From Elusimicrobiota bacterium (lineage in GTDB: Bacteria > Elusimicrobiota > Elusimicrobia > Elusimicrobiales > UBA9959), in contig JAINCQ010000008.1 of assembly GCA_036574205.1 (NCBI GenBank), positions 1-19,455 of the forward strand: a stretch of 19,455 nt of DNA, in the 5' to 3' direction. The position numbers and the translations under genes were made by a program. Below, one piece after another: positions 1 through 19,455 of the stretch (within the stretch, counting starts at the first letter, position 1; every line of letters begins with the position of its first letter). A model generated the notes under the pieces. The model was not told the DNA's origin. It did no database searches and was given only the letters and a program-made list of their open reading frames with translations.

Positions 1-227
1 TTGAGGATGTATTTTCGATAACTGGAAGGGGAACAGTTGCGACTGGCAGGGTTGAACGAGGGAAGATAAAGGTAGGGGAAGCGGTTGAGATAGTAGGCTT
101 TGGCAAGACCTATCAATCAGTGGCTACAAGACTTGAGATGTTCAGGAAGTTGCTAGATGAGGCTATAGCTGGAGACAAGATAGGCATTTTATTAAGGGAT
201 ATAAGCAAAAATTTTTTTAGGATTTAA
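1..227 (+). pseudogene. tuf: 3' end of a truncated, degenerate elongation factor Tu sequence (domain II only; 5' part lies outside the window)
   Basis: Frame from nt 3 reads [74 protein letters not shown], clearly EF-Tu domain II (EDVFSIxGRGTVxTGRVERG, EMFRK). Similarity ends near nt 205-210 and TAA at 225-227 occurs before the ERGQV motif; no domain III follows. Not in the ORF track. Confidence 0.85.
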
Positions 228-298
228 ATATTATTTAACGAGATTTAAATGAGTCAGATAAATAAGTATTATAAAATTTGTTTCATTTAGGAGGATGA

Positions 299-1315
299 AT
301 GATATATTTTGAAGCAAAACAAATTATAAAAAAGTGTTTATTAGCAAAATTACCCTGTTTTATATGGGGTGGACCTGGTATTGGTAAGAGTTCCTGTGTC
401 AGAGAAATTTGTGATGAAGAAAACACAGAGTTATTCGATATACGGCTTAGCCTTTTAGATCCTACTGATTTAAGAGGCTTACCTTTTCCTAATAAAACCA
501 GGGGAATTGTAGAATGGTTGGTTCCCGATTTTTTGCCGCCATCTAATTCAAAACAGAAGATAGTGCTTTTTCTTGATGAATTTAATTGCGCTCCAAAACA
601 GGTTCAGATGGCAAGTCTTCAGTTATTGCTGGATAGAAAATTGGGAAATTATATTTTACCTGAAAATGCTGCTATAATTGCGGCAGGGAATCGTGAAGAG
701 GATATGGCATTTGTAAATATACTCTCTTCTGCTGTTTGTAATAGATTGGTGCATATTCATTTAAATCCTGATATTGATAGTTGGACTAATTGGGCGGTAT
801 CTCATAATATTCTACCGGAGATAGTTGGTTTTTTAAATTTCAGACCTGAATTACTCTTTAAATTAACTGGTGAAAAATCTTTCCCTTCTCCAAGAACATG
901 GGTAATGGCAAGTGAGCTCATTAATAAAACAAAAATAACAGATATTAAAGAAATAAAAACAATTATTTCCTGTTGTGTTGGTGATGGGGTGATGTCTGAA
1001 TTTATTAGTTGGTATAAAAATTATAAAGATATAGATGTAAAATCTATTTTACAAGGCAAGTATCCTGATCTTGAATCTAAAAATGCTTCATATAAATATG
1101 CAATTATAATTGCCTTAGGTTATTATTTGCAAAATCATGGTTTTAAAAATTCTGAAGCTAATATAGCTAACTTTTTAAAATTATTTAATCCTGAGTATAG
1201 AGTTTTGTTTCTTAAAGCTTTAAAAAAAGAAGAATTAGTTCGCCAGTTATGCATGCATAAATCTATGAAGGAGATGGCTTCTCAGATATTAAAAGTTACA
1301 ATTGGGGAGATATGA
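299..1315 (+). CDS. MoxR-like/dynein-related AAA+ ATPase (AAA_5 type)
   Basis: Walker A WGGPGIGKS, DLRGLP insert, Walker B LFLDEFN, sensor AAGN, NRL arginine finger, FPSPRTW motif; SD AGGAGG at 289-294. Confidence 0.9.
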   Translation: MIYFEAKQIIKKCLLAKLPCFIWGGPGIGKSSCVREICDEENTELFDIRLSLLDPTDLRGLPFPNKTRGIVEWLVPDFLPPSNSKQKIVLFLDEFNCAPKQVQMASLQLLLDRKLGNYILPENAAIIAAGNREEDMAFVNILSSAVCNRLVHIHLNPDIDSWTNWAVSHNILPEIVGFLNFRPELLFKLTGEKSFPSPRTWVMASELINKTKITDIKEIKTIISCCVGDGVMSEFISWYKNYKDIDVKSILQGKYPDLESKNASYKYAIIIALGYYLQNHGFKNSEANIANFLKLFNPEYRVLFLKALKKEELVRQLCMHKSMKEMASQILKVTIGEI

Positions 1316-1620
1316 GGAAAAAATTCTATTTTTTTAAGAAAAAGATTGAGAAAATACAGCAGATGGGAGACTATAGTTTTTCTCTGTTAAAGTCAGAGGA
1401 AAATGAAGTACAGATTTTTTTATGTCATGGTGGAATAAAGGAATACACAATAACTTTATACCATGATCCCCAAAAAAAACCTGTATGCACATGTTTTGAT
1501 TATGAAAGGTCAATAAAAAATGGAATTTATTGTAAACATATTATAAAACTTTTGTATCAACTTGGGCGAGAAGGTGAGTTGCTTTCAATTTTATTATCGG
1601 AAGGTGAAAATGCAACCTGA
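1312..1620 (+). CDS. small SWIM zinc-finger protein
   Basis: CTC-x12-CKH (CxC...CxH) preceded by a beta-strand-like YTITL segment; ATGA overlap with the ATPase stop codon. Confidence 0.8.
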   Translation: MRKKFYFFKKKIEKIQQMGDYSFSLLKSEENEVQIFLCHGGIKEYTITLYHDPQKKPVCTCFDYERSIKNGIYCKHIIKLLYQLGREGELLSILLSEGENAT

Positions 1621-2701
1621 AGAAATAATTTCAAATGTAATAATTAGATTGATAACATTGAATCCTTTTTTTGGTGTTCTTTTAAGTAGTTTGGAAAAAA
1701 TTAAAGATGAAACGATAATATATAATGGGAAACCTACATTTGCGACTGATGGTTTTAAAATTTTTTATCATCCTCAAGTTTTAACATTGTTTACTTTATC
1801 AGAACTTGAAGGTATTTTATTACATGAAGTTTTACATGGCATTTTTGAACATTGTTTAAAATCAAGAATAGGTAATAGGAATCCTGATTTATGGAACATT
1901 GCTTGTGATATCGTGGTAAATATAGAGATAAAAGAGATGGGTTATGATCTACCTGCTGCTTCTGCTTTTGATTATAGGTTCAGAGATATGTTGCCTGAAG
2001 AAATTTATGAAATATTAAACAAAAAATCTGCTGTTTTTGTGAAAAGATTTGATATTCATATGCCGCTTTTAGATGAGGATGAAGAAAAACTAACTAATCA
2101 TATCTTAACAGCATATGAAATATCCAAAGATTCAATTGGAGATTTACCGTTAGGACTTATTAGAGCTATAAATAAATTAAAGCCGTCTAAAATTAACTGG
2201 CAAAAAATTCTCCATTATATCGCTGGCGAAGCTCTGGCAAAAGATGAATTAAATTATCACCTGCCAAATAAAAAATATATTCCATATGACATATATTTAC
2301 CTTCTTTGAGGTCTTATACCAAAGGAAGCCTGATAGTTGCAATAGATACCAGTGGTTCAATAACAAATGAGCAATTAATCCAATTCGTATCTGAAATAAA
2401 GAAAATAAGTTATCTGGTAGATAAATTTTTTCTTATTACATGTGATGCTTCGGTTCATGAAATAGTAGAAATAGAACAGTTTGAAAATTTTTTACACAGG
2501 GTTTATTTCAAGGGTGGGGGTGGCACTGATTTTAATCCTGTTTTTAAAATTATAAGAGAGAAGAGATTAAATCCTGATTTATTAATTTATCTTACAGATG
2601 GCGAAGGTGACTACCCAGAATTTAGACCACCTTATCCAGTTTTATGGATTTTAACTAAAAATTATAATGTTCCCTGGGGGAATAAACTTGTGATTAGTTG
2701 A
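1610..2701 (+). CDS. HExxH metallopeptidase-like N-terminal domain + C-terminal vWA domain (DUF2201-like), 363 aa
   Basis: PTFATDG, LLHEVLH, WNIACD in the N-terminal domain; MIDAS IDTSGS, GGGTDF and LTDG in the C-terminal domain. Start revised from the track's 1562 to ATG 1610, which follows GGAAGGTG and overlaps the SWIM gene stop by 11 nt. Confidence 0.9.
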   Translation: MQPEEIISNVIIRLITLNPFFGVLLSSLEKIKDETIIYNGKPTFATDGFKIFYHPQVLTLFTLSELEGILLHEVLHGIFEHCLKSRIGNRNPDLWNIACDIVVNIEIKEMGYDLPAASAFDYRFRDMLPEEIYEILNKKSAVFVKRFDIHMPLLDEDEEKLTNHILTAYEISKDSIGDLPLGLIRAINKLKPSKINWQKILHYIAGEALAKDELNYHLPNKKYIPYDIYLPSLRSYTKGSLIVAIDTSGSITNEQLIQFVSEIKKISYLVDKFFLITCDASVHEIVEIEQFENFLHRVYFKGGGGTDFNPVFKIIREKRLNPDLLIYLTDGEGDYPEFRPPYPVLWILTKNYNVPWGNKLVIS

Positions 2702-2766: not shown

Positions 2767-3350
2767 TGTGAAAAAGTTACGATACATATGCGATATTAGG
2801 GTTTAATAGTTTTGGTATGCAAAATTTCTTTATATTTCGTAGAATAAAAGGCTTAAGGAGAGCATATAATATGCTTAATAGCCTTAAGAACTTAAGCGAA
2901 AGCGAAGTGGCAAAGAAAAGGAAGAAGATAATAAAGTTTTATGAGTAGGAAAAAATATCAGTGGTTTGGTAAAGAAAAGATAAAGGTAATGCTGGATAAA
3001 TAAAGAGCTTACAAAGCGACAATGGAAGTGAGAATTTAGGAGAGTTTGACTTAGAATTAAAACGAGAAGGGATAGAACATAAATTTACATATCCAAGATG
3101 TCCGAGAATAAATAGCTATATAGAAAGGTATAACAGGACAATACAGGAGGAGTTTATAGATAATAACCTGGATATAATGCATGACAAAGAGTTATTGAAC
3201 AAGAAGTTAGCGGAATACCTGTCTGCGTGCAACGCACAGGCAGATTTGATATACTATAATATTGAGAGACCGCATAAATCATTGAATATGAAAGCGCCAT
3301 TAGAGTTAATTTTAAAAGATAAAATGTCGCAAATGTGTGTAACTCATACG
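2767..3350 (+). mobile_element. internally deleted IS481-family insertion sequence remnant
   Basis: Imperfect terminal inverted repeats: left TGTGAAAAAGTTACGATACATATGCGATATT (2767-2797) versus the reverse complement of 3323-3350, CGTATGAGTTACACACATTTGCGACATT. They enclose transposase fragments over only about 580 bp. Confidence 0.75.
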
Positions 3351-3359
3351 AAAACTTGA
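2817..3359 (+). pseudogene. IS481-family (rve integrase core) transposase pseudogene
   Basis: N-terminal piece 2817-2948 (MQNFFIFRRIKGLRRAYNMLNSLKNLSESEVAKKRKKIIKFYE*). C-terminal piece 3000-3359 in the same frame (LQSDNGSE...YPRCPRINSYIERYNRTIQEEF...YYNIERPHKSL). In-frame stops lie between them and the region holding the first catalytic Asp is missing. The track ORF 3177-3359 is only the tail. Confidence 0.88.
3218..3244. repeat. 27-bp GC-rich palindromic micro-insertion, in frame in the transposase remnant
   Basis: CCTGTCTGCGTGCAACGCACAGGCAGA with inner hairpin TGCGT-GCA-ACGCA and outer arms CTGTC/GGCAG. Removing it restores EYLIYYNxxRPH. Confidence 0.75.
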
Positions 3360-3384
3360 TTTATTTTTTTAAATTAGTTAAATT
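3356..3384 (+). promoter_or_regulatory. putative sigma70 promoter of the aminotransferase gene
   Basis: TTGATT (3356-3361), 17 nt, TAAATT (3379-3384); SD AGGAGG just upstream of ATG 3423. Confidence 0.4.
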
Positions 3385-10184: not shown

Positions 10185-12059
10185 ATGAAAGATTTTAATT
10201 GGAAAGTAATGATAGTTGGTTTTGTTCTTTGCGCTTTAGCCGCGGCAGCAACCCCATATGTAACCTTAAAACTCGGGCAAAGCGTTGATCTTACAATAGC
10301 GGGGATGTTTTTAATAGCTTATATGTTTGCCCACAAAATGAGTAGCAAGGATCTTGCAGTTCAACTTAACATAGTTCAGACAATGATAGGTCTTGTCTCC
10401 GGTATTGCTTTTATGGTTGTTATACTTTCAGCTTTTTTTTATATTAAAAACATTTTTGGTAGAGATATAAACTTTGATCTTTCAGTATGGCAGATGTTTT
10501 TATGGCTTGTGGTTTCAGCAAATCTTGGGATATTTATGGGTATACTTCCAAGAAGCGCTATATTAAAAGACAGAACCCTCCCATGGCCTGCCAGTAAAGC
10601 AACTTTAAATGTCGCCCAGACTCTATCAGACCCGGCTGCTGGAGAATTAAACAAATCAAAAAGAAGAGTTTTAATGATGAGCACTGCTGGTTCAGGTTTT
10701 TTAACTTTTTTAAGAGATGGTATGGGGGTTTTGCAACCAGTCGTTGCCAATCCTTCATTAAATGTTGCTCTTGGTTTTGAGTTTGCGGCTTTTGGAATAG
10801 GAATGCTTGTTCCTCTTTCTGTGGGACTTTCAGGGCTTTTAGGAACATGGATAGTTAATTCCTTTGGAGATACTGTGGCAAAATATGCCGCTTTATCTGG
10901 TTTAAGTGGTGAAACTTTTAACAAATGTTTTGAGTTATTAAATAACTATTCATCCTTAGAGGGAGTTGATAAATCAAATGCCATTGAATTTTTAAATACA
11001 AGTTGTTCTAAGGCTGGTGAGTTTATTAATTCTTCTTCTCATTTTAAGTTTGTAGTTCAATGGATGATGTGGCCAGCAACAGCTATGATGATAGCAGCAG
11101 CTTTGACAGGAATATTTATTCCTGTTATAAAACACGCTTTTGGAAAAAGAAAGAAAAAAGATGATGAGCATCTATTTAAATCACTTGCCGATGAACATAT
11201 CCCTATGTCATGGATAGTTAGTGGAGTACTTTTAAGTGTTGTTTTGCTTATATGGATGACAAACAAATGGTTTAACATGCCAACTTTAGAGGTTTTACTT
11301 GCCATAGCTTTACAGCCTATTTTGATAATTGCTGGTTTAAAAGTTTTAGGAATAACAGGTTCGGGTCCAGTTTCGCTTATGGCAAATGCGACTCAATTTT
11401 TGTATGGCTTATTATGGCCTTCTCAATTAAAATCAAACTTAACCGCTGCCTATATAAGTGCAAATCCTCAGGCTACATCTGAAAATGTTGTGCCTTCATT
11501 TTGGGTCGCTCAAAGACTTGGTGGAAGATTTAAGACTCTTATAATAGCCCAGCTTTTAGTTGTTCCTATAGGCGCTTTGCTTACGCCGGTTATGTTTAAT
11601 ATGCTTGAAAAGACTTACGGCATAGGTTTAAATCCAGGACAGCTTGCCGCTCCAACAGGGCTTAAAATAGCGACTCTTGCAATTGTTATGGAAAAAGGTC
11701 TTTCCTATCTTCCTTATGGTGCTTTAAAGGCATCTGTTATAGCTGTATTTATAGGTATATTGTTTGAAATTCTTTTATCATTTAGAAAAAAGGATAAGGA
11801 AGGCAACGAAACTCAAAGGTTCTGGTGGGTTCCAATTCCAGCAGCATTGGGTTTTGCTTTAATTCTTCCTCCGTCCTTAAATATAGGTATTGCAATTGGG
11901 AGTTTTGTTTCATATATGTGGTCTAAAATAGCCTACAAAGAACACTCATCATATCATTTGTATTCTACATCTATTGCATCAGGTCTTATAGCTGGCGAGG
12001 CTATGGTTGGATCTTTGCTTTTACCTGCTTTAACAGCTTTAATAGCATTTTTAAATTAG
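10185..12059 (+). CDS. OPT/YSL-family transporter
   Basis: 624-aa polytopic membrane protein; YVTLKLG, NIVQT, LPWP, LAAP and ASGLIAGEA motifs; SD AGGAGG. Confidence 0.85.
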   Translation: MKDFNWKVMIVGFVLCALAAAATPYVTLKLGQSVDLTIAGMFLIAYMFAHKMSSKDLAVQLNIVQTMIGLVSGIAFMVVILSAFFYIKNIFGRDINFDLSVWQMFLWLVVSANLGIFMGILPRSAILKDRTLPWPASKATLNVAQTLSDPAAGELNKSKRRVLMMSTAGSGFLTFLRDGMGVLQPVVANPSLNVALGFEFAAFGIGMLVPLSVGLSGLLGTWIVNSFGDTVAKYAALSGLSGETFNKCFELLNNYSSLEGVDKSNAIEFLNTSCSKAGEFINSSSHFKFVVQWMMWPATAMMIAAALTGIFIPVIKHAFGKRKKKDDEHLFKSLADEHIPMSWIVSGVLLSVVLLIWMTNKWFNMPTLEVLLAIALQPILIIAGLKVLGITGSGPVSLMANATQFLYGLLWPSQLKSNLTAAYISANPQATSENVVPSFWVAQRLGGRFKTLIIAQLLVVPIGALLTPVMFNMLEKTYGIGLNPGQLAAPTGLKIATLAIVMEKGLSYLPYGALKASVIAVFIGILFEILLSFRKKDKEGNETQRFWWVPIPAALGFALILPPSLNIGIAIGSFVSYMWSKIAYKEHSSYHLYSTSIASGLIAGEAMVGSLLLPALTALIAFLN

Positions 12060-17425: not shown

Positions 17426-19046
17426 ATTTTACAAGTATTTCTTCCAGATCTTTTTCAGGTGTATTTATTGTTTTTATATTAAACTTTTCAACGAGTATGT
17501 TTAGTAAGTTTGGAGTTATAAAGGCTGGAAGTGATGGACCAAGTCTTATATTTTTAATTCCTAGATAAAGCAGGGTTAATAGTATACAGACTGCTTTCTG
17601 TTCATACCATGAAAGTACCAGAGAAAGCGGTAGTTCATTTACTGGTTTATTAAATACCTTTGAAAGAGCAAGTGCAATCTGAATAGCTGAATAAGCATCA
17701 TTACATTGACCTATATCAAGAAGTCTTGGGATGCCATCAATTTCTCCAAGGTCCAGTTTGTTAAACCTGAATTTTCCACAGGCAAGCGTTAAGATAATAC
17801 TATCTTTTGGTGTTTTTTCAACAAACTCGGTATAATAGTTTCTTCAAGGTTTTGCACCATCACATCCACCAACTAAAAAGAAATGTTTTATTTTACCTTT
17901 TTTAACATAATCTACTATAGTTTGGGCTGTATTTAAAACTGCTTGTCGTGCAAATCCAACTGTTATATACTTTGCTTCCTCATCTTTTTCAAATCCTTTT
18001 TCTCTTAGAGCTGCTTCTATAAGCGGTGTAAAATCTTTATTTGATATATGTTTTACCCCGGGCCATTGTACAAGACCTGTGGTAAACATTCTGTTTTCAT
18101 ATCCTTTTGGATCTTGCAAACAATTTGTTGTCATTAATATTGCCCCTGGAAATTTCTTAAATTCTTTTTGCTGATCTTGCCATGCTCCGCCGTAGTTACC
18201 CACAAGATGTTTATATTTTTTTAGTTTGGGATATCCATGAGCAGGAAGCATTTCACCATGGGTATATATATTAATTCCTTTTCCCTCTGTCTGTTTTAAA
18301 AGTTCTTCAAGGTCCTTTAAATCATGACCACTTATAAGAATAGCTTTTCCTTTAACTGGGGTTATTCTTACTTTTGTTGGTGTTGGATGTCCGTAGCGTG
18401 TTGTATGAGCCTCATCAAGCATTTCCATTATCCTTAAATTAATTTCTCCACATTTAAGATTATAATTGAACAATTCATCTAATTTATATTTTTTGTTTGT
18501 TAGATAAGAAAGTGCTTCATGAAAGAAATCAAATACTTTTTCATCAGTTTTACCTAATATCATAGCATGGTCTGCATAAGCTGCGGTGCCTTTAAGACCA
18601 TATGTTAAAAGTTCTTTCAATCCTGTAATATCATCTCCATATTCTTTTTTGCTTTGAACAATTCCAACTTTTGAGGCAAAAGATATTAAATCTGAAAGAT
18701 TTGATTGTGGAATCCATTTTGCTTCTTCAGCTTCCTGTTCATTTGGATAAAGTCTATCATATTCCTTTTTAAGCTTTTCCTTTATCTTTTTCCCTTCATA
18801 AATTTTTTCTCTTATTGTCTGTGGATCAAAGTTTACATTTGTAACTGTTGTAAAAAGAGACTCTATCACATATATATCAGCTTCTTTTGTTTGTAATCCT
18901 TTTTTTCTGAGTCTATGAGCATAATAAGATACCCCTTTTGTTTGATATACAAGCAGATCCTGCATGAGTGAGGTTTGTGGGTCCTTTCCACATATGCCAG
19001 TAACATCACACCCTTGATTGTTTTTAGCTTGCTCACATTGATAACA
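17424..19046 (-). pseudogene. hcp: hybrid cluster protein (hydroxylamine/NO reductase), disrupted by a nonsense codon and an IS at its 5' end
   Basis: One frame from CYQCEQAKNNQGCDVTGICGKD (19046, upstream of the track start) through SGHDL, YTHGEMLPAH, TTNC and GGCDGAKP*RNYY (TGA at 17846-17844), then LACGK, GQCND and SWYEQKA to TAA 17426-17424. The initiator codon is replaced by IS sequence. Confidence 0.93.
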
Positions 19047-19152: not shown

Positions 19153-19455
19153 ATGAATAGTATAACAAAAATAGAGGAGATAGAGAAGGGGAAATTAGCG
19201 AGGGAATGGCTTAAGGGTTTAGATGATGAATTTGATAAGGAACTGAGGCGGGAGACTGTGATAGGGTTAAAGAAGCTAATAGAAACCAGTCTTGAGGTGG
19301 AGGTTGTGGATTTAATAGGAAGTGATAAATGGGAGCACAATCCCAATAGGAAGACATATCGTAATGGCTATTATCAGCGTAATTTACTTACGAGCATGGG
19401 GTATATAGCGGGGATAAATGTTCCCCGTGTAAGGGAAGGCAGGATAAATTGGAAG
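19153..19455 (+). CDS. IS256-family (mutator-like) transposase, N-terminal 101 codons, runs off the window
   Basis: MNSITKIEEIEKG...LIETSLEVEVVDLIG...RKTYRNGYYQRNLLTSMGYIAGINVPRVREG; the RNGYYxRxLxTxxG...VPRxR signature is characteristic of IS256 transposases. SD AGGAGG. Not in the ORF track. Confidence 0.9.
   Translation, partial: MNSITKIEEIEKGKLAREWLKGLDDEFDKELRRETVIGLKKLIETSLEVEVVDLIGSDKWEHNPNRKTYRNGYYQRNLLTSMGYIAGINVPRVREGRINWK

Follow-up and report, generated by a model that had tools for sequence, protein, structure and literature searches.

The EF-Tu fragment at the start of the contig

The window analyzed here, 19,455 nt in length, is the whole of contig C41, which belongs to the bin G000 (43 contigs, 1.85 Mb, 95% complete). 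It opens with the reading frame of a tuf (EF-Tu) fragment, followed in the same orientation and 71 nt further on by an AAA-SWIM-vWA cassette, and then by the remnant of an insertion sequence (IS), which sits between the cassette and a conserved aminotransferase gene (Table 1).

Table 1. Features of the first part of the window
Feature	Position	Strand	Details
tuf part identical to functional tuf	1..127	+	Domain II; shared 127-mer at the fork of the assembly graph
Open frame of the fragment	3..227	+	74 residues, TAA at 225-227; EF-Tu residues ~220-287, then 8 unrelated codons (ISKNFFRI)
Diverged 3' edge of partial tuf	128..205	+	5 differences in 128-134 and 6 in 173-198; homology lost at ~199-205
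Spacer	228..298	+	71 nt, AT-rich; AGGAGG at 289-294 before the AAA start codon at 299
AAA+ ATPase, MoxR/AAA_5 type, first cassette gene	299..1315	+	Pfam AAA, E 1.2e-6; AAA_5, E 3.5e-4
SWIM zinc-finger protein	1312..1620	+	Pfam SWIM, E 2.5e-6
Putative HExxH metallopeptidase (DUF2201_N) and VWA-like (DUF2201) protein	1562..2701	+	Pfam, E 1.2e-23 and 9.8e-26
Internally deleted insertion sequence	2769..3373	+	rve-type integrase core remnant at 3000-3356; Pfam rve_3, E 2.5e-11

An earlier note, made from the letters of this DNA, had read the first frame as EF-Tu domain II running to the TAA codon and ending before domain III, 71 nt upstream of the AAA gene, and our searches agree on each of these points. 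The frame matches Pfam GTP_EFTU_D2 (PF03144) with an E value of 2.6e-16 and 60.2 bits (cut-off, 30.3 bits), so that domain II is present over profile positions 1-63 of 73. It aligns to EF-Tu models at positions 216-285 of 394, and over these positions it scores 95.9 bits with the equivalog TIGR00485, below the curated full-length cut-off of 522.4 bits. Domain III (PF03143) does not follow domain II in the fragment, the only PF03143 matches of the genome being at the ends of contigs C15 and C18, and a search of C41 for domain III or any further tuf remnant at very loose thresholds (E 50) returned only noise.

Changes at three conserved motifs had also been pointed out, and most of that observation stands. 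All 12 distinct tuf loci of relatives carry the motifs ATG[L/I]EMF, GDN[I/V]G, and LLRG, while the window has R, K, and D in place of the invariant G, N, and G of these 12 loci (ATGLEMF, GDNIG, LLRG) and thus departs from its lineage at all three. The L of TRLEMF, on the other hand, is native to the lineage, and the sole aberrant change in that motif is G to R. In the DNA, window 128-134 belongs to ACA AGA CTT (T R L), compared to ACG GGC TTG (T G L) in the real tuf, which gives the G-to-R replacement; the 6 differences in 173-198 span the region of the N-to-K and G-to-D replacements. Together they make 11 differences in 71 nt (128-198), after which unrelated AT-rich DNA begins. The same-genus tuf is homologous to nt 1-201 (82% identity), with similarity at background level beyond ~199-205, and the switch in composition described earlier is found at about nt 200, with a GC content of 0.45 for nt 1-200 and 0.255 for nt 201-400. 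A foreign origin was considered for the edge at 128-198 and rejected, with no signal for it in the matches to the best relative's tuf (57/71) and to the tuf of the own genome (60/71).

The spacer holds a promoter-like match at 244-272, which was not above the shuffle expectation, and promoter and terminator scans of the window as a whole were at or below that expectation. The same scans of the AT-rich spacer on C24, the contig with the second tuf 5' end described below, were uninformative. No Rfam family was found in the window.

The contig start and the junction

Throughout the assembly, the overlap between contig ends is exactly 127 nt, which marks it as the product of a k=127 graph. Window nt 1-127 are identical to the real tuf of the genome, and the first difference is at nt 128, that is, k+1. 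C41 therefore starts at window nt 1 because tuf is a repeat whose first copy-specific base on this path is nt 128.

For a comparison we used one public DNA run that contained 97% of the sampled words and may be the source of the assembly. Contigs built from it with k=31 were compared with window 1-1500; these are a second assembly, possibly from the very same reads, and do not count as independent data. One of these contigs is a tuf trunk of 638 nt with a depth of 39.5, which covers window 1-172 and 466 nt upstream and differs from the window only at 128-134. There are two branches. The first, of 2,703 nt with a depth of 15.8, runs from window 143 to ~2845, across the junction, with 0 differences. 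The second, of 411 nt with a depth of 23.8, differs from the window at 6 positions over 143-198, goes on as genuine tuf (GIEKDQVERG), and extends 355 nt beyond the break with no merging branch. The two branch depths sum to 39.6, compared to 39.5 for the trunk. The depths of 39.5, 23.8, and 15.8 correspond to 2.5:1.5:1, which fits 3:2:1 only roughly and 2:1:1 about equally, and they do not separate two copies from three.

Since a k=31 contig of even depth carries it, the junction at ~199-205 is real and is no chimera or misassembly. Exact patterns from nt ~190-240 gave 0 matches in the collections metagenome_contigs and genome_contigs, which may omit the window's own genome.

Copies of tuf in the bin

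Besides that of the window, the bin contains two tuf 3' ends, one at the end of C15 and one at the end of C18. Their sequences agree over 127 nt before they part, C15 continuing into rpsJ and PBP1A and C18 into rpmG, tRNA-Trp, and nusG. Two 5' ends are found as well, one at the end of C19 (GGAGGAATTTATG, 38 codons) and one at the end of C24 (118 codons). The same-genus genome G001 has a full-length tuf at each of two loci. The first, rpoBC-rpsLG-fusA-tuf-rpsJ-PBP1A, is syntenic with C15 in its downstream part, and the second, zinc-ribbon/RNase H-tuf-nusG-rplKA, is syntenic with C19 on one side and with C18 on the other. The rpoBC-rpsLG-fusA block, which adjoins tuf in G001, has no match in bin G000; as these genes are essential, their contig is simply unbinned. 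The figure of 95% completeness thus hides the loss of a core ribosomal/RNA polymerase contig.

The terminal 127-mer of C19 runs from the ribosome-binding site to tuf nt 113. Because C24 has 4 mismatches in this span, the 127-mer has to be shared with some other 5' path, a third one, for which fusA-tuf is the expected candidate. This gives three 5' paths (fusA-linked, C19, and C24) for three 3' paths (C15, C18, and C41). Synteny assigns the fusA-linked path to C15 and C19 to C18, which leaves C24 for C41. We infer this last join from elimination and synteny, with no spanning read, and recombination between tuf genes could have swapped the flanks.

Partial tuf sequences call for care in this group, as the tuf genes of the relatives are often at contig edges, and the 4 partial matches that looked interior (one in G011, two in G034, and one in G016) all proved to be at contig ends. 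Judging from the ends of C15, C18, and C19, the tufA/tufB repeat of this genome appears to start at the ribosome-binding site ahead of the tuf start codon and to reach as far as the start codon of the following gene, and an identical GAGGAATTTATG string stands ahead of tuf, rpsJ, and rpmG.

A probable third, partial tuf copy

We consider it likely that a third, incomplete tuf copy ends in window 1-205, which would be its 3' edge, that the interior of this copy has been kept identical to the full genes by gene conversion, and that the copy is a pseudogene remnant. It would extend from approximately codon 1 to approximately codon 287 of 398 and would have a G domain and the greater part of domain II, with domain III missing.

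Its 5' edge would be the start-less G-domain piece at the end of C24, which is attached to the window by elimination only; directly upstream of the window, the k=31 tuf contig provides 466 nt. On C24, a 2-oxoacid:ferredoxin oxidoreductase operon in divergent orientation is found 317 nt away from the tuf copy. The homology starts with codon 2, after ...ATTATTATT, where the ancestral ATG reads ATT and no GGAGG is present, in contrast to C19 (GGAGGAATTTATG). An in-frame ATG further upstream opens the frame (MCIIISKAK...). Over the first 113 nt, C24 differs from C19 at 4 positions, all of them synonymous. The visible parts of the frame are open, with 118 codons on C24 and 74 in the window. The geometry of the assembly places the last copy-specific base of C24 near tuf nt 224, and the interior from there to window nt 127, ~550 nt, is common to the full genes and was never seen as copy-specific sequence.

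Gene conversion is suggested by this contrast between an interior identical to the working genes and edges that have diverged by 4 to 15%, since a conversion tract needs homology on both sides. The interior was presumably overwritten repeatedly by the two full-length tuf genes, while the edges, where a tract would lack a homology anchor on the far side, may have been free to drift. Such drift at the 5' edge, on C24, would account for the loss of the ribosome-binding site and the change from ATG to ATT; at the 3' edge, in the window, it would account for the replacement of three invariant residues, the frame then entering unrelated AT-rich DNA, where it stops. Gene conversion between tuf copies is established, and the copies within a genome are nearly identical (PMC1780047, citing Abdulkarim and Hughes 1996 and Hughes 2000). 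An interior repeat shared by three copies would also have blocked the k=127 assembler, with C41 beginning 127 nt before the first copy-specific base as a consequence.

The third copy most likely makes no working EF-Tu, judging from the lack of a Shine-Dalgarno sequence, the ATT at the start, the missing domain III, and the three radical replacements. A copy under selection would also show synonymous-only differences at its 5' edge and open visible frames. Taken as a whole, the fragment is real but ordinary, most likely an extra truncated tuf copy and probably a pseudogene.

Other origins of the fragment

A different history, proposed in the earlier note, is that a regular tuf gene was cut by insertion of the AAA-SWIM-vWA island, which would make nt ~205 the junction and would leave the displaced domain III at the other end of the island. 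We regard this as unlikely, even though the cassette is indeed accessory DNA: a search found its vWA protein in neither of the 2 same-genus genomes, and among 300 other genomes of the phylum 9 have it, the best match being 41% identical. The IS remnant that follows the cassette, the abrupt end of homology at the AT-rich boundary, and the depths, for which a division of 39.5 into 15.8 and 23.8 is also compatible with two copies, would all be in keeping with such an insertion. Against it, both regular tuf 3' ends (C15 and C18) are intact and still joined to their conserved downstream genes, three distinct 5' paths are present, and the real-tuf contig passes the break by 355 nt with no branch merging into it. 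Neither C41 nor the rest of the bin holds an orphan piece of domain II or III, and no other displaced tuf piece was found there. A divergence of 15% in 128-198 next to an identical interior is also unlike a fresh cut. The fragment is better described as part of an extra third copy, which may have been truncated by the cassette on its arrival or by an IS-mediated event.

It is quite unlikely, in our view, that the first ~200 nt stem from the tuf of another strain or organism wrongly joined to C41, or represent a variant carried by a minor subpopulation. The source is a metagenome bin, the fragment lies at a contig edge, tuf k-mers are common to relatives, the depth ratios are not integers, and the junction is in no second public record, all of which would be in keeping with such an artifact. 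However, the k=31 contig from 143 to ~2845 has the same depth of 15.8 at the junction as in the 2.7 kb downstream and 0 differences, the k=127 contig connects the variant positions in 128-134 and 173-198 with the AT-rich DNA, and the two branches together account for the depth of the trunk.

The neighboring AAA-SWIM-vWA cassette

The cassette genes match the families of MoxR-type AAA+/VWA cassettes (DUF2201_N/DUF2201, SWIM). In PADLOC, the SWIM and vWA proteins had no match and the AAA protein only a weak one, to IetA (E 0.0058); an NCBIfam search of the cassette proteins added nothing, and neither library assigns the cassette a function. No close relatives of the vWA protein came up in a scan with that protein alone. 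A pattern search for the vWA protein was built on an alignment of 5 sequences, one of 8 sequences being too divergent. Genes for DUF2201-type vWA/metallopeptidase proteins are widespread, with at least 579 tblastn-confirmed relatives in species-representative genomes. We kept 80 vWA loci from many phyla (L080-L159), of which 63 have an AAA homologue, and for 54 of these the DNA available upstream of the AAA gene is 1 kb or longer. The AAA homologue is upstream of the vWA gene and on the same strand in 61 of the 63, the order also seen in the window. In one relative (L052), a SWIM-like open reading frame comes before the AAA gene, not after it.

The earlier note had offered as its second possibility that the EF-Tu-like sequence belongs to the module as a decoy, sensor, or substrate. 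No EF-Tu-like tblastn match was obtained near any of 7 homologous vWA/AAA loci in the phylum (E ≤ 1e-2) or near any of the 80 across phyla (E ≤ 1e-3). The EF-Tu fragment is therefore not a component of AAA-SWIM-vWA cassettes, and its adjacency is a matter of location, not of function. Even so, one can imagine a truncated EF-Tu, consisting of the G domain and domain II, that is expressed and works with this particular cassette, for example, as a decoy or sensor for the HExxH metallopeptidase domain. The open visible frame (118 codons on C24 and 74 in the window), the 4 synonymous differences at the 5' edge, the orientation shared with the cassette across a gap of 71 nt, and the putative metallopeptidase domain in a cassette protein would suit this idea. 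We nevertheless consider it very unlikely, given the absence of EF-Tu-like sequence from all 7 and all 80 homologous loci, most of those with an AAA homologue having upstream DNA in which it could have been seen, the radical changes at three invariant positions, and the PADLOC results. The missing Shine-Dalgarno sequence and the ATT at the ancestral start argue in the same direction, as both the C19 tuf and the AAA gene have AGGAGG or GGAGG. Most improbable of all is that a truncated EF-Tu made from the upstream ATG acts for the cassette as bait or as a mimic of the real EF-Tu, which would make it a lineage-specific addition to a conflict system, updated by gene conversion along with the host tuf.

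The flanks of the tuf copy and of the cassette point to a locus that differs between genomes. The oxidoreductase and aminotransferase orthologues of G001 are flanked by different genes, and at 12 orthologous aminotransferase loci tuf, AAA, vWA, and the IS remnant are all absent.

Relation to known systems

The likely third tuf copy can be compared with the concerted evolution of tufA and tufB by gene conversion in Salmonella, with which it has in common that there are several tuf copies and that their shared part is identical. The canonical tuf contexts, fusA-tuf-rpsJ and tuf-rpmG-secE-nusG, are present here. Unlike in tufA/tufB pairs, one partner is truncated and start-less, and conversion is deduced only from the pattern of an identical interior and diverged edges. 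In the passages considered here, a survey of translational GTPases reports a single partial gene, and two more that insertions had inactivated, in the genomes it analyzed (PMC1780047). Like those genes, the fragment in the window cannot make a full protein; a partial tuf kept identical to intact copies is not described in these passages (PMC1780047).

Compared to AAA/VWA cassettes generally, the tuf fragment in the window is the non-recurrent element, with no counterpart at the 80 loci.

Lit is an HExxH protease, and its cleavage of EF-Tu takes place in phage exclusion. The likeness of the present locus to the Lit system is one of theme only, an HExxH protein and an EF-Tu sequence, and no conserved EF-Tu association was found here.

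A practical caution follows from the way in which the tuf repeat breaks short-read assemblies: for this reason, a piece of EF-Tu at a contig start beside "defense-like" genes should not be read as a functional association. If the proposed history is true, a start-less, truncated tuf would be a natural example of gene conversion keeping a dead fragment "fresh," and its edge mutations might in principle also be passed on to the essential tuf copies.

Insertion sequences and other features of the window

The partial tuf copy sits in an IS-scarred, rearranged variable region. The IS remnant at 2769-3373 has DNA matches of 80 to 100% on at least eight other contigs (C42, C1, C10, C7, C6, C3, C5, and C33); its pieces lie at contig ends on C42, C1, C10, C7, C3, C5, and C33 and inside the contig on C6. 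Copies of insertion sequences are a main reason why the bin is so fragmented.

On C24, positions 20878-20963 (approximately 11407-11492 of locus L025) hold a 94-nt remnant (77% identity) of a second rve-type IS, comprising the 3' end of its transposase gene and its terminus. The spacer in which this remnant is found separates the oxidoreductase operon from the start-less tuf copy. The oxidoreductase of G001 is preceded by genes syntenic with the left end of C4, and in G000, C4 also ends in the repeat to which the 94-nt remnant belongs.

Further along the window, the gene of a hybrid-cluster (Prismane) protein at 17440-18965 on the minus strand has an in-frame TGA at 17844-17846 (GGCDGAKP*RNYYTEF), beyond which the frame stays open for ~135 codons. 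The TGA could be a nonsense mutation, making the gene a pseudogene, a recoding site, or a sequencing variant. The N-terminal cysteine motif of this protein (CYQCEQ...) is encoded upstream of the first ATG. The window ends, at 19153-19455, in the 5' part of a transposase gene of the IS256/Mutator family, which runs off the contig end, and its last 127 nt are common to C23 and overlap C7.
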